64,000 bases of DNA, from positions 12,292-76,291 of the IMG/VR virus record IMGVR_UViG_2724679539_000005; one strand, 5' to 3'. Positions 7,061 through 62,072 of this stretch are shown piece after piece. Under the pieces are notes generated by a model that worked only from the letters and a program-made list of their open reading frames with translations, did no database searches and had not been told where the DNA came from. The first letter of the stretch is position 1. Each line of letters starts with the position of its first letter. Source of the DNA: a virus (taxonomy: Duplodnaviria; Heunggongvirae; Uroviricota; Caudoviricetes). A program made the translations under genes and the position numbers.

Positions 7061-7077
7061 TCCTATTATCGCACCAT
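7061..7077 (+). other. att core, copy 1 (thrW 3'-end-like TCCTATTATCGCACCAT), next to the integrase 3' end
   Basis: 17-nt match to the tRNA-Thr(CGU) 3' end as recalled; the same core recurs at 48847-48863 and 62056-62072, each followed by an AAATCAATAA-like flank. Confidence 0.6.
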
Positions 7078-7090
7078 CTAAATCAATAAG

Positions 7091-8251
7091 TTACCTCGCA
7101 TTTAAGTAAACTACGTTCTCCTCTTGTGCCGTATTTGTGCCATTGCGACTTATAATCGCATCGATTTTGCTCGCGTGCTCGGTGAGATGCCCAGCTGAAA
7201 GGTGGGCGTATCTTTGAACCATTTCGAGAGTTTCCCATCCTCCCATCTCTTTAAGTGCAAGAAGAGAGACACCGGACTGAACCAGCCAGCTTGCCCAGGT
7301 ATGCCTCAGGTCATGGAAGCGGAAGTTGCTAATGCCTGCCCGCTTTAACGCTCCCTTCCATGCCTTGTTGCTGTCGGTTCTCATCTTCCTTACCGCTGCT
7401 GTTTTTGTTCCGTCGCTTCGGTAGGCAGGTTTGGTGTGGACAAATACCCATCTCTTATGGAGCCCCTGCTGTTTTCTTAATATCTGGCATGCGGTTTCGT
7501 TAAGAGGAACTCCGATCGCATTGCCAGCTTTTGTTTCATCAGGGTGCATCCATGCCATTTTCTTATCCAGATCGACCTGTGACCACTCAAGGTCTGTAAC
7601 GTTGGAACGACGAAGGCCTGTCGTGATTGCAAACATGACCACAGGGAAGAAATGAGGAGCAATTTCTGCAAACAGGCGCTTCGATTCCTCCTCTGTAAGC
7701 CATCTGATTCGTCCATTCTTAACGCGTGGTGTTGATATTTTGGGCGCCCTGTCAAGCCATCCCCATTCAACAGCCATATTGAGAATAGCGCGAAGTATTG
7801 CCAGATGCCGCGTCTTCGTTCCTTTGCTTGCCAGCTTTGGTTTATACTCCGGCACTGGCTTGCCAAGCCGCAAACACCTATCCCGGCTCATCTCCCAGTT
7901 CAGGCGATGGCGGCGGTTTTCCATCCCGTCTACCGCCTCCATTATTTTTTCTGTTGTTATGTCAGAGAGAATGGTTTCTCTGAAGTGCAACATCCAGAAC
8001 GATATAATGCTCTTGTCATCATCAATGGACTTCTTATCCGATTTCTCACGCAGCCACCGTATGCAGGCTTCCTTGAATAGCTTTTTCGGTGATTCCCCGA
8101 GATTTTTTACTCTCCACGCTTCTGCTTTCAGACGATCGTGAAGTTCTTGCGCTTGCCTCTTGTCCGATGTTTCAAGAGAGCGTCTAACTCTTGATCCATC
8201 TGGCGCGACGAAATCGCAGTGCCATGTGCCACCGCGCAGTTTGATTGACAT
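7091..8251 (-). CDS. int: tyrosine integrase (P4/CP4-type)
   Basis: C-terminal catalytic region with [13 protein letters not shown] and the conserved Tyr region (VQRYAHL); 386 aa; adjacent to the att core. Confidence 0.9.
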   Translation of the reverse strand: MSIKLRGGTWHCDFVAPDGSRVRRSLETSDKRQAQELHDRLKAEAWRVKNLGESPKKLFKEACIRWLREKSDKKSIDDDKSIISFWMLHFRETILSDITTEKIMEAVDGMENRRHRLNWEMSRDRCLRLGKPVPEYKPKLASKGTKTRHLAILRAILNMAVEWGWLDRAPKISTPRVKNGRIRWLTEEESKRLFAEIAPHFFPVVMFAITTGLRRSNVTDLEWSQVDLDKKMAWMHPDETKAGNAIGVPLNETACQILRKQQGLHKRWVFVHTKPAYRSDGTKTAAVRKMRTDSNKAWKGALKRAGISNFRFHDLRHTWASWLVQSGVSLLALKEMGGWETLEMVQRYAHLSAGHLTEHASKIDAIISRNGTNTAQEENVVYLNAR

Positions 8252-8547
8252 GCTTTAACCTCCTGCACATCAACCGCATTCACCGCGCCATTGTGTCTCA
8301 CAGACTTAAGCGCCGCAATGCAGTCTGACTTGCAAATGCGATATGGGCTTTTAGGTTTATCTGGATTTATCTTTGCGGCTTGAAGTCGTCCACTTCGTAT
8401 CCACTGCGTGATAGTGCCTTTGTCTACCTTCAGATACGACGCAGCCTCTTCACGAGTGAAGATTTCTTCTTCCACTTGGAGTCTCCATTTATTGGATTGA
8501 CATGATTGCTGTAGGTCTGGATATCTTGAGAAGCTGGCAGGCCTCAT
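8128..8547 (-). CDS. xis: excisionase / AlpA-like HTH DNA-binding protein; 3' extent uncertain
   Basis: HTH segment (EEAASYLKVDKGTITQWIRSGRL); directly upstream of int and overlapping its start in another frame. Confidence 0.55.
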   Translation of the reverse strand: MRPASFSRYPDLQQSCQSNKWRLQVEEEIFTREEAASYLKVDKGTITQWIRSGRLQAAKINPDKPKSPYRICKSDCIAALKSVRHNGAVNAVDVQEVKACQSNCAVAHGTAISSRQMDQELDALLKHRTRGKRKNFTIV

Positions 8548-8822
8548 CGAGTGTGAGGCTGTATGATTCCATGGTTACCTCTGCTTTTTGAACGCATGTC
8601 ACGTAACTTCTTAATGTGTTCTGCCGTTTCGATCTCTTCTGCTATCCGATCTGCATCAGCTTTATTCACAGGTTCAAAGTCATGATTAAATCGGAACATG
8701 CTGGCGATACATGTTCTGCCTTTTCGGATGTAGTGAACTTTGTTGTGGGTAGAACGCAGGATTTTGCAGGGAGTGCCGTGGTGATCGACGTACCAGGTGT
8801 TAGGAAAAATGATTCTGAACAT
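8544..8822 (-). CDS. hypothetical early protein (92 aa)
   Basis: ORF in the early-left operon between xis and the TraR-like gene. Confidence 0.35.
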   Translation of the reverse strand: MFRIIFPNTWYVDHHGTPCKILRSTHNKVHYIRKGRTCIASMFRFNHDFEPVNKADADRIAEEIETAEHIKKLRDMRSKSRGNHGIIQPHTR

Positions 8823-8869
8823 TTTTACACCTCAGTTGGACGATGTTGAAATTTGCTGCTTTGAGGCCA

Positions 8870-59787: not shown

Positions 59788-59818
59788 TTCCCGCCATAAC
59801 ATTACAAGGAAAATTATT

Positions 59819-60532
59819 ATGGCGACCGCCGGGATTTTAACCATACGTGCAGCAAATACTCCAGAACAACACGTTCAGGCTGTTTACAAAGCAGAACAAG
59901 ATATAAATTCTACAAAAAACGAAAATAGCAAAGCTAATAAAACAAAAGGAGAGAACGGATTTGCTATTGTTACCAGTGGACTGGCATCTTCTGGCAATGA
60001 CGTTTATGAAAATTATATGGCACTGGCCTTTGACAGTGTTGACGACGTGAACGTGAGACGTTCGGCAGATGTCACAAGCTACCCCGTAGAAAATGGTGCT
60101 ACTGTGTCTGATCACGTTCAAATTAAAAACAATAAGTTCTCTCTTAAAGGGCGCATCTCTGAAACACCGATTAAAAGCGATCCTGGCTTGTTAAAGAGTG
60201 CAGGGGTGAACGGGAACAGAAGATCATTAGCTATCGACTACCTGAATCAGATTATGGACAGTAGACAGCCTTTTCTTCTTGTTACAGAAAATAAAACTTT
60301 TGAGAACGTTGTTTTAACAGGCATCGAATACACAGAAGAGGCAAGCGAATCTCTGGTATTTGATCTTAGCTTTGAACAAATCAGATTAGTTTCTTATGGC
60401 ACTGTAAACACTGTAGCTATCAAAACACAGCCATCTAAGAACATCGGGGCTAATATGAAAAAACGTGTTAACACTGAAAAATCAAGTAGTGAAGGTGAAG
60501 ACACTATTACTCCTGCCTTTAAACAGGAATAG
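59819..60532 (+). CDS. hypothetical protein (237 aa)
   Basis: Last ORF of the operon before the integrase. Confidence 0.45.
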   Translation: MATAGILTIRAANTPEQHVQAVYKAEQDINSTKNENSKANKTKGENGFAIVTSGLASSGNDVYENYMALAFDSVDDVNVRRSADVTSYPVENGATVSDHVQIKNNKFSLKGRISETPIKSDPGLLKSAGVNGNRRSLAIDYLNQIMDSRQPFLLVTENKTFENVVLTGIEYTEEASESLVFDLSFEQIRLVSYGTVNTVAIKTQPSKNIGANMKKRVNTEKSSSEGEDTITPAFKQE

Positions 60533-60613
60533 CCGTAAACGCCTCTAAAACGCTCTGTAACGATGTAATTATAAAAGAGGCTACCAATCTATGTTGAAGC
60601 CTCTTTATTGCGT

Positions 60614-61978
60614 CTATGGCGTTGTTTTACGCCTTAAATTTGATTTTTTATTGATTGATAAGCCTTTCTCTATTTCAGGGTAGCGTAGAAGCTCAATATA
60701 TTTTTTAAGCTCTACTGGAGAAGCTGCATTCTTGCTATATGTGCGGAATGTCTCTGTATTGCCGCGTGTATGGCCCAGGAGAAGGGCGATCCTGTCTTCT
60801 GGAATTTGATTTCGATCAAGAAGCTGTGCTACTCCGTGTCTCAGAGAATGAAACACTTTCCTTTCTGTTCCCTTTTCCCCTAAAGCCTTTCGTTTAGCTC
60901 TTGTAAATCTCTGCGTGTGCCACGTGGAACGTTTACCATCAGCACGCTCTGTAATGCTGGCGTGATAGAACAAAAAGCCATTATGAGGCTTTTCACGCAG
61001 CGACAACACCAACGGAGTGATAAGGCTATGTACAGGCACAACACGCGCCGCAGCTTTCGTTTTTCCCTGTGTGATTTCAAAACACAGCACACCTTCGATC
61101 TCTTTCACATCGTCTATTGTGAGACTTGCTATCTCATTGATCCGCATACCTGTATAAGCACCGATAAGACACAAAGCCATCATTTCTTTGTTTTCTGCTG
61201 AATTACCGGAAAATACTTGCAACACTTGCAATAGCTCTTTGTTAGAAAATGCCTCATAGCTCTCTCTACTTTGTGCCACATCAAGCCTATGCCCTCGCCA
61301 GGGGGAGAGCGCCCTTTCTGGCGCATCGTGGTAACGTGATGAAGCTAACTCCCATAGCTGGGCCATTGGGCTGATATAATTTGCAATTGATTGTTGTGAA
61401 AGGGTTTTTTGCATGTGTTCAATCCAGCCTGTAACAGTGGTGCGGCTCACATCTTGCAATGCAATATCAGGCTTTTTACGGTAGGAGAGAAACATCTCTA
61501 CCGCTTTTCTTGCCTTAGCTAAAGTGGCTGGCTTCTTCTTCGTGCTGTTAATTGTCAGGTAGATTTCAAGAATTTTAAGCAATGACGGACACGAAGACGC
61601 TGTATCTTGCATTCTGGTAGCTGTTTTGGCGTATTTAGCCTTACTGCGTAACAGTTCCAGCGTGTTCTCTATTGTGCTGTTTACAGGGGCGACACTCTCC
61701 CGTAGACAATGGTATTCATCTGCAATCTGATCACGCTTTCTACGTGCAACACGAAGACTACTTGTGTGCAGACTTCTGACAAACGTCCTTTTTCCTTCAA
61801 AAAAGGGCTGCATATACACAGGCAACGTGATCCTCAAATAGTAGTTACCGTAAGAATCACAGATTATGTATTGGTTAGGCTTGTATCTCATAAAATCTCC
61901 GGCTAAAGTGTCGGAGCGTTTGTAATGTGAAAATTGATTGTGACGCATAGAAAATGATGATTTTTCTATAAGATTCAA
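60614..61978 (-). CDS. tyrosine recombinase/integrase of the 13 kb element; N-terminal extent uncertain
   Basis: C-terminal catalytic motifs (HSLRHGVAQ, LLGH); the track ORF is 454 aa. Confidence 0.85.
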   Translation of the reverse strand: MNLIEKSSFSMRHNQFSHYKRSDTLAGDFMRYKPNQYIICDSYGNYYLRITLPVYMQPFFEGKRTFVRSLHTSSLRVARRKRDQIADEYHCLRESVAPVNSTIENTLELLRSKAKYAKTATRMQDTASSCPSLLKILEIYLTINSTKKKPATLAKARKAVEMFLSYRKKPDIALQDVSRTTVTGWIEHMQKTLSQQSIANYISPMAQLWELASSRYHDAPERALSPWRGHRLDVAQSRESYEAFSNKELLQVLQVFSGNSAENKEMMALCLIGAYTGMRINEIASLTIDDVKEIEGVLCFEITQGKTKAAARVVPVHSLITPLVLSLREKPHNGFLFYHASITERADGKRSTWHTQRFTRAKRKALGEKGTERKVFHSLRHGVAQLLDRNQIPEDRIALLLGHTRGNTETFRTYSKNAASPVELKKYIELLRYPEIEKGLSINKKSNLRRKTTP

Positions 61979-62005
61979 TCAATTAGTAATGGTCGTAGGT
62001 GATGG

Positions 62006-62072
62006 CATTAACACGAGATTAATCGAGTGTTTTACTCCTATTATCGGCACCACTTAAATCAATAAGTTACAC
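62006..62072 (+). other. att copy 3: degenerate thrW 3'-end remnant (TAATG-GTCGTAGGT ... TCCTATTATCGGCACCA)
   Basis: The 17-nt core at 62056-62072 matches the tRNA-Thr 3' end exactly; upstream homology is interrupted by about 35 nt of unrelated sequence. Confidence 0.6.

Follow-up and report, generated by a model that had tools for sequence, protein, structure and literature searches.

A probable tandem array of integrative elements downstream of the tRNA gene thrW in Escherichia fergusonii GTA-EF02

The stretch of DNA analyzed here (the window) is 64,000 nucleotides (nt) of IMG/VR virus record IMGVR_UViG_2724679539_000005, positions 12,292 to 76,291. Its source is Escherichia fergusonii GTA-EF02: positions 47961 to 64000 of the window are 100% identical to contig JZWQ02000012.1 of assembly GCA_000968905.2, and the JZWQ prefix belongs to this strain, a beef trim isolate (PMC4832150). 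On that contig, the first base of the window falls near position 193,262. Three fragments of the 3' part of the threonine tRNA gene thrW, which we treat as attachment (att) cores, divide the window into the right-hand part of an island (element A), a lambdoid prophage (B), a small phage-like element (C), and, to the right of the third core, an integrase fossil (D). Chromosomal backbone follows on the plus strand (62382 to 64000) and consists of the ykgR region and the gene for a LysR-family regulator (63107 to 64000, truncated by the window end). A contig scan with the LysR gene gave relatives at 88 to 95% identity, among them E. whittamii, E. ruysiae, and Escherichia sp. E1V33. This backbone is just 77 to 90% identical to that of E. 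coli, which fits an E. fergusonii source, and 100% identical to JZWQ02000012.1.

Core 1 (7061 to 7076) is a 16-nt thrW 3' fragment with one G missing and is both the right attachment site (attR) of A and the left junction of B. Core 2 (48818 to 48862) is a 45-nt fragment that runs from the anticodon loop to the CCA end, also with one G missing, and serves as attR for B and as left junction for C. Core 3 (62034 to 62052) matches the last 19 nt of thrW perfectly, retains the GG, and forms the attR of C as well as the left junction of D. One gap suffices to align core 2 with the tRNA-Thr genes annotated in two E. coli genomes, and cores 1 and 2 share the identical one-G deletion relative to thrW. 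In a search of the window, TCCTATTATCGCACCA has exactly two copies, at 7061 to 7076 and 48847 to 48862, where 0.01 is expected by chance, and this two-match outcome was obtained in 0 of 100 shuffles. The form with the intact GG, TCCTATTATCGGCACCA, has a single copy at 62036 to 62052 (0.02 expected by chance). A further, loose match to the core with 3 mismatches lies inside a structural gene of B (39375 to 39391). The initial annotation had recognized three thrW cores and placed the first two correctly; its third, at 62056 to 62072, was 20 nt too far to the right, since position 62056 is the start of the flanking sequence AAATCAATAA. Its observation that the core repeats are followed by similar flanks holds, in that AAATCAATAA occurs 5 times in the window compared with 0.44 expected, and 3 of these 5 occurrences sit 4 to 7 nt past the cores.

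Two further features of the cores that had been noted earlier, the extension of the second copy to 45 nt of tRNA-Thr 3' sequence and the interruption of the third, were also found. The interruption is a degenerate remnant of the 5' part of a 46-nt thrW block (61982 to 62033, plus strand) in the right arm of C; it is made up of ATTaGTAAT, a 5-nt deletion, GGTCGTAGGT, and then approximately 30 inserted nt, and it immediately precedes the intact 19 nt. All three cores are intergenic and on the plus strand, each lies exactly at a break-point of synteny with other genomes, and each adjoins an integrase gene or an integrase fossil. Core 1 is the point at which synteny with E. coli strains Ec1120 and MS15236 breaks. 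Neither ARAGORN nor Rfam at the gathering threshold detected a tRNA gene in the window, which agrees with the earlier suggestion that the functional thrW lies outside it. In Ec1120 and MS15236, thrW is likewise on the plus strand relative to A and ends 11.7 kb and 14.2 kb, respectively, to the left of the equivalent of window base 1, and based on these homologous loci we infer that the intact gene of GTA-EF02 lies 12 to 14 kb to the left of the window.

Element B (7077 to 48862 including its tDNA fragment, body 7077 to 48817, plus strand) is a complete-looking lambdoid prophage of 41.8 kb with a contractile tail. Based on Pfam and on the E. coli annotation of matching prophages, it carries genes for an integrase (386 amino acids, 7091 to 8251, minus strand, Pfam Phage_integrase) and an HTH_17 excisionase (xis, 8128 to 8547, minus strand), a bet/exo region, an S24 repressor gene (14460 to 15188, minus strand), O (16057 to 17076), P (17073 to 17774), lysis genes, and genes for a gpA-type terminase (29622 to 31739), a lambda-type portal (31960 to 33471), a ClpP-capsid fusion of protease and capsid (33233 to 35506), a tail sheath (38056 to 39600), and a tail fibre (46002 to 47792). 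As in prophages of the P22/SfX type, a tyrosine integrase gene with the excisionase gene directly upstream reads toward the left attachment site (attL). An integrase with the same protein sequence is indexed in 1941 blocks of the collection. Of the 8 places shown, 7 have it approximately 200 bp from proA, beside thrW, and in all 8 the thrW 3' end is followed by the arm TCTAAATCAATAAGTTACCTCGC..., the same arm that follows core 1. The right flank of core 1 is also identical to the attL arm that adjoins intact thrW at comparison loci L004 and L007. When the two ends of B are joined (48790 to 48862 with 7077 to 7121), the rebuilt 118-nt attP matches, over its full length, the annotated attP of SfX, HK75, HK446, mEpX2, HK542, mEp213, mEp043, ECP1, and others, and is 97.5% identical to the free-phage attP over the 118 nt. 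Prophages of this group at thrW have a 46-bp attP sequence at both ends (PMC3851460). The right end of B has 45 of these 46 nt, with one G deleted, and the left end has only 16 nt, as would result from the insertion of A at that end.

Several smaller features of B are outside its integration module. Rfam places isrK (20279 to 20351) next to a C4 antisense RNA (20376 to 20461); isrK/C4 is a small-RNA control module for an antirepressor that is known from P1/P7 and some lambdoid prophages. A gene for a eukaryote-like Ser/Thr kinase (12878 to 13924, minus strand), which is separated from the repressor gene by one small open reading frame (ORF; 13918 to 14379), is hit by the PD-T4-6 and mad6 models for anti-phage defence (E values of 1e-36 to 1e-49). 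Within a patch of 35% GC is an ORF of 472 amino acids (18429 to 19847, minus strand), probably a moron gene, that has no Pfam match and a weak match to the candidate defence family HEC-07.

The window contains the right-hand 7 kb of element A (1 to 7076 including core 1, body 1 to 7060, plus strand), and the rest of this island of approximately 19 to 21 kb lies to the left. Pfam identifies the C-terminal part of a P22-like ejection/transglycosylase protein (233 to 1840), PerC (5080 to 5361), and a pRiA4b ORF-3 family gene (5965 to 6507); the other genes are cargo of unknown function. The part of A inside the window has cargo genes only, among which a PADLOC scan detected no defence systems. 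From end to end, this part shares 99.5 to 99.8% identity with E. coli Ec1120 and MS15236, and all 8 of its proteins are identical to their Ec1120 counterparts. In both of these strains the order of the island is proA, intact thrW, P4-like integrase, HTH, antA (antirepressor), ash, DUF5906 primase, P22-like ejection genes, PerC, pRiA4b-ORF3, and attR, and the same 16-nt deleted core terminates A in loci L002 and L003. The pairing of a P4-like integrase, Ash, and a DUF5906 primase with homologues of P22-like DNA-ejection/transglycosylase proteins (233 to 1840 in the window; 18395 to 21840 in L002) is unusual cargo for a P4-like island, and it hints at dependence on P22-like helper phages.

Element C (48863 to 62052 including core 3, body 48863 to 61981, plus strand) is 13.2 kb long and has a GC content of 36 to 42%. 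It contains iterons (52010 to 52172) in a 2-kb gene-free stretch, a Rep-like gene (53858 to 54511), a gene for a lambda gpE-like capsid protein (56626 to 57663), a tape-measure-like gene (608 amino acids, 57961 to 59787), a Dit-like gene (59819 to 60532), and, at its far right end, a gene for a DUF6538-type tyrosine integrase (60614 to 61948, minus strand, Pfam Phage_integrase). Neither Pfam nor PHROGs detected a portal, protease, or terminase among the C ORFs tested, several small ORFs of which have no match and may be remote homologues. Apart from the tRNA cores, no direct repeats bounding C were found, the search turning up only the iterons, and a search after core 2 found no integrase remnant. 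In IMG/VR, the capsid gene of C matches only prophage regions predicted in isolate genomes, with no evidence of a free particle genome. Copies of C that are 99.9% identical and bounded by the same two cores are present in loci L093 to L099, and a copy at 95 to 96% identity is present in E. coli CEA601S. The degenerate 5' block is kept in every copy of C examined, and only the last 19 nt are perfect (10 of 10 copies), which fits a C integrase that needs just those 19 nt. An imperfect inverted repeat of 23 nt (61932 to 61954 and 61962 to 61984) spans the predicted start of the integrase gene, approximately 50 nt from core 3, and may act as an operator or as an arm-type site for the integrase.

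Fossil D (62053 to 62332, minus strand) consists of a P22-type attL arm (CTTAAATCAATAAGTTAC...) and, after it, the frameshifted remains of an integrase C terminus. By tblastn, the remnant matches residues 299 to 379 of the B integrase with up to 72% identity (E value, 1.5e-24). D is orthologous, with 89% identity, to the pseudogene annotated as "integrase, partial" before yagU in E. coli and is also found in Escherichia sp. E1V33; because the same pseudogene is present in both, D would be old and vertically inherited. Compared with E. coli, the E. fergusonii backbone to the right of the fossil (62224 to 63106) is without yagU, ykgJ, the ecp fimbrial operon, and ykgL/M/O, and the fossil passes almost directly into the ykgR region and the LysR gene.

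The elements that are stacked in the window occur elsewhere singly or in other combinations. A is alone at the site in Ec1120 and is accompanied by the vat module in MS15236. A B-type prophage is alone in AMSCJX03 and in 7 of the 8 places shown for the B integrase, and it is combined with C in CEA601S, L093, and L096. C is alone in L094 and L099 and is combined with a P4-like satellite in L097 and L098; it lies directly beside intact thrW in L094 and L097 to L099 and behind a different P22-type prophage in L093 and L096. This variation in occupancy, which serves as the comparison with an empty site that the initial annotation had proposed, indicates that every core-to-core interval forms an integrative unit of its own and that A, B, and C are, as judged from these loci, independent integrative modules. 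Each unit is seen elsewhere as an independent thrW insertion, which upholds the earlier description of thrW-derived att cores that define a tandem stack. The earlier estimate of at least three integration events was correct in that integration was successive, but the count is at least four, as fossil D follows core 3. Each of the three members has its own tDNA fragment in the same orientation (3 fragments, all plus), as the Islander criterion specifies; B and C each have an integrase gene, the integrase gene that both E. coli homologues of A carry would lie beyond the window in GTA-EF02, and D retains only a fossil. Based on the positions of the cores, the attP reconstruction, and the comparisons with other genomes, we conclude that the window very probably contains the greater part of a tandem array that integrative elements have formed downstream of thrW in E. 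fergusonii GTA-EF02.

Such an array would form by the standard route of tyrosine-integrase elements into tRNA genes (PMC4383910, PMC7192596). The attP of each element would hold a copy of the 3' part of thrW, which the element's tyrosine integrase would recombine with the gene; each integration would rebuild thrW proximally and push the previous 3' end distally as a fragment, and repetition of this process would produce the order thrW (outside the window), A, core 1, B, core 2, C, core 3, fossil D, chromosome. In B, and formerly in D, an integrase of the P22/SfX type would use an identity block of 46 nt beginning in the anticodon loop. In A and C, only the last 16 to 19 nt of thrW would be common to element and gene. 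In the Islander scheme, a 46-nt block would correspond to the anticodon-loop subsite and 16 to 19 nt to the T-stem/acceptor subsite. To the left of the window, the predicted order is proA, a 76-nt tRNA-Thr(CGU) gene with TATCGGCACCA, TTCAAACATCTCCCC..., and a P4-like integrase gene. D is probably the oldest arrival, because it is common to E. coli at a divergence like that of the backbone. B was probably beside thrW before A arrived, because A lies between thrW and the integrase-side arm of B and because core 1 is without the anticodon-loop part that a P22-type integrase needs. C could have entered either thrW or the 45-nt fragment of B, so B and C may have arrived in either order.

Three points weigh against this account. 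The presence of intact thrW and of the A integrase in the source genome is predicted from homologous loci, the crossover positions of the three integrases are taken from the starts of the identity blocks, and the one-G deletion in core 2 is not predicted by simple integration of a CGG attP into intact thrW. The deletion (CGGCACCA to CGCACCA) tracks the element to the left of the core (loci L002, L003, L012, L015, and L102 to L104): it is present in every A-type attR examined, with four different right flanks, while the GG is present in every C attR and every intact thrW. A test for a corresponding link to the right flank was negative. In the P22-type fragment, the GG is present in approximately 131 of 134 E. 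coli genomes and the deleted form in 3; the deleted fragment occurs in the window, in the near-identical relative L100, and in three E. coli strains with three phages and three right flanks. In AMSCJX03, the attL is thrW with the GG intact and the attR is deleted. We also tested whether the deletion is phage-borne. All 15 free-phage attP records with the arm of B span 119 nt compared with the 118 nt of the query, which is consistent with an intact GG. A P22-type crossover in the anticodon loop would require the core 2 deletion to have arisen later, by mutation or conversion, and a phage-borne deletion would require a crossover 3' of the GG.

The deletion could also reflect the opposite order of arrival, with A present before B and B integrating into the displaced 16-nt core of A as a secondary attB by exchange at the very 3' end. 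The one-G deletion, otherwise the hallmark of A-type attR cores, is present at both junctions of B. The deleted P22-type attR is rare in E. coli, and its occurrence in the 3 strains with three different phages and three different right flanks is as expected if it is carried by the phage-side arm. The intact CGG attL and deleted attR of AMSCJX03 likewise fit a crossover 3' of the GG. However, all 15 of the free-phage attP records are consistent with an intact GG, and a deleted target that recombines once with a CGG attP cannot yield two junctions that both have the deletion. In addition, under the Islander scheme (PMC4383910), the anticodon-loop start of the 46-nt block means a crossover in that loop, and core 1 is without that region. 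We therefore regard this order as unlikely and prefer successive integration with B preceding A.

A different question is whether the members arrived one at a time. A, the B integrase, and C are 99.7 to 100% identical to their E. coli copies, compared with approximately 89% for the backbone, and the copies of C in E. coli-type contexts are 99.9% identical despite a host backbone difference of approximately 11%. From these identities it appears that all three units have recently crossed the species boundary. The same contrast would be expected if all or part of the stack had been acquired as a block pre-assembled in E. coli, by transduction or conjugation and then homologous recombination in the flanks, and pairs such as a B-type prophage with C do already exist in E. 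coli. Against such a transfer, fossil D and the ykgR-LysR region to the right of core 3 are of the E. fergusonii type rather than E. coli-like, there is no E. coli complete genome with A, B, and C together, in that no record covers at least 80% of either 24- to 25-kb query, and each module is found singly at thrW. Block transfer is therefore quite improbable compared with separate integrations. Finally, the idea that the repeats are chance matches or conserved coding-sequence motifs with no tie to integration, for which nothing speaks except the short length (16 to 19 nt) of cores 1 and 3, has a negligible likelihood and is already refuted by the genome comparisons, given the 0.01 to 0.02 copies expected and the intergenic, same-strand, integrase-adjacent positions of the cores at synteny break-points.

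The position of A has a possible consequence for excision. If B arrived before A and recombines in the anticodon loop, then A, which uses the last 16 nt of thrW, sits between the crossover site of B and its integrase-side (P') arm, and B may be unable to excise before A. The stack might even be a working helper-satellite assembly and not a passive accumulation. A, with its P4-like integrase and P22-type ejection genes, and C, which moves between Escherichia species and has capsid-like, tape-measure-like, and Dit-like genes of its own, would then be satellites sharing their tRNA target with a helper that has a P22/SfX-type integrase, and A would block the excision of B and impose an order, but this proposal is speculative and unlikely. 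If it were true, B would have no precise excision until A leaves, or it would exit only as an A-plus-B composite of approximately 60 kb.

With approximately 74 kb of foreign DNA in four units between proA-thrW and the backbone, this locus is a clean, fully resolved case of one tRNA gene collecting mobile DNA, and the short (16 to 19 nt) and long (45 to 46 nt) tDNA fragments within one array mark different integrase types. It is nevertheless an ordinary tandem array at a known hotspot, and it leaves the understanding of site-specific integration unchanged. The recent movement of A and C between species, the finding that the thrW island is composite, the puzzling deletion, and the possible order of excision are side points of modest interest.

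Several known systems resemble parts of this array. P4-like satellites have as hallmarks a P4-type integrase, an alpha primase-helicase, and the psu/sid/delta genes for capsid size and transactivation. The relatives of A share with them a P4-type integrase beside a tRNA gene, an Ash-family protein, and a DUF5906/D5-type primase; in these E. coli homologues the integrase, Ash, and the DUF5906 primase are annotated and psu, sid, and delta are not, and A has genes for P22-like ejection proteins, so that, by gene content, A appears to be P4-like only in part. Phage-inducible chromosomal islands (PICIs) have an integrase, a regulatory switch, a replication module, and a terminase small subunit, and capsid-forming PICIs also have portal, protease, capsid, and connector genes. 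Assignment of C to either kind of PICI was rejected since no portal or terminase was found, even though an integrase, a Rep-like gene, iterons, and a gpE-like capsid gene are present; C may represent a type of phage satellite not yet described. Its counterpart is the 13 kb nearest to thrW in VAT-PAI/PAI-APECO1-thrW, a 20-kb, 41% GC island of avian and extraintestinal pathogenic E. coli (PMC7545054, citing Parreira and Gyles 2003), and APEC O1 and CEA601S match C. Unlike that island, the window is without the vat toxin module, and C is bounded by its own cores. In E. coli the vat module has its own truncated P4-like integrase and is a unit separate from C, and what is annotated as the "VAT-PAI/thrW island" of pathogenic E. 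coli is thus a composite.

Among lambdoid and P22-like phages that use thrW (P22, SfI/SfII/SfIV/SfV/SfX, HK75, HK446, mEpX2, and mEp213; PMC3851460), B shares the int-xis-attP module and the thrW identity block that starts in the anticodon loop. It differs from them in that its fragment is 45 rather than 46 nt, A separates its integrase-side arm from thrW, and no gtr or oac serotype-conversion genes were noted in it. The contractile-tail structural module of B is nearest to that of Citrobacter phage Chris1 (80% identity). CP4-6-like elements had also been named in the initial annotation, but nothing in the window has CP4-6 gene content: a blastn comparison of the window with L102, which has the CP4-6 genes ykfI/yafW, ykfF, yfjR-type, and others, matched only tail-fibre sequence and the attP arm. 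The CP4-6 cryptic prophage of E. coli K-12 is flanked by thrW and, at its distal end, by ptwF, a displaced pseudo-tRNA fragment. The likeness is therefore in the target gene and the distal pseudo-tRNA fragment, and phage records label the attP found here "type CP4-6."

The closest parallel to the stack as a whole is found among catalogued arrays. thrW is a documented integration hotspot of E. coli (PMC7545054), and tandem arrays at tRNA genes are a defined category in Islander/TIGER (PMC4383910, PMC7192596), although in Islander 2014 arrays of three or more numbered just 4 among 3919 islands (PMC4383910). Like those arrays, this one has one tDNA fragment per element, a single orientation, a separate tyrosine integrase in B and C and a predicted one in A, and a target that would be regenerated at the head of the array. 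Unlike them, it combines three intact-looking members with a fossil, and it mixes fragments of 45 nt with fragments of 16 to 19 nt, which points to the use of two different subsites of the same tRNA gene.

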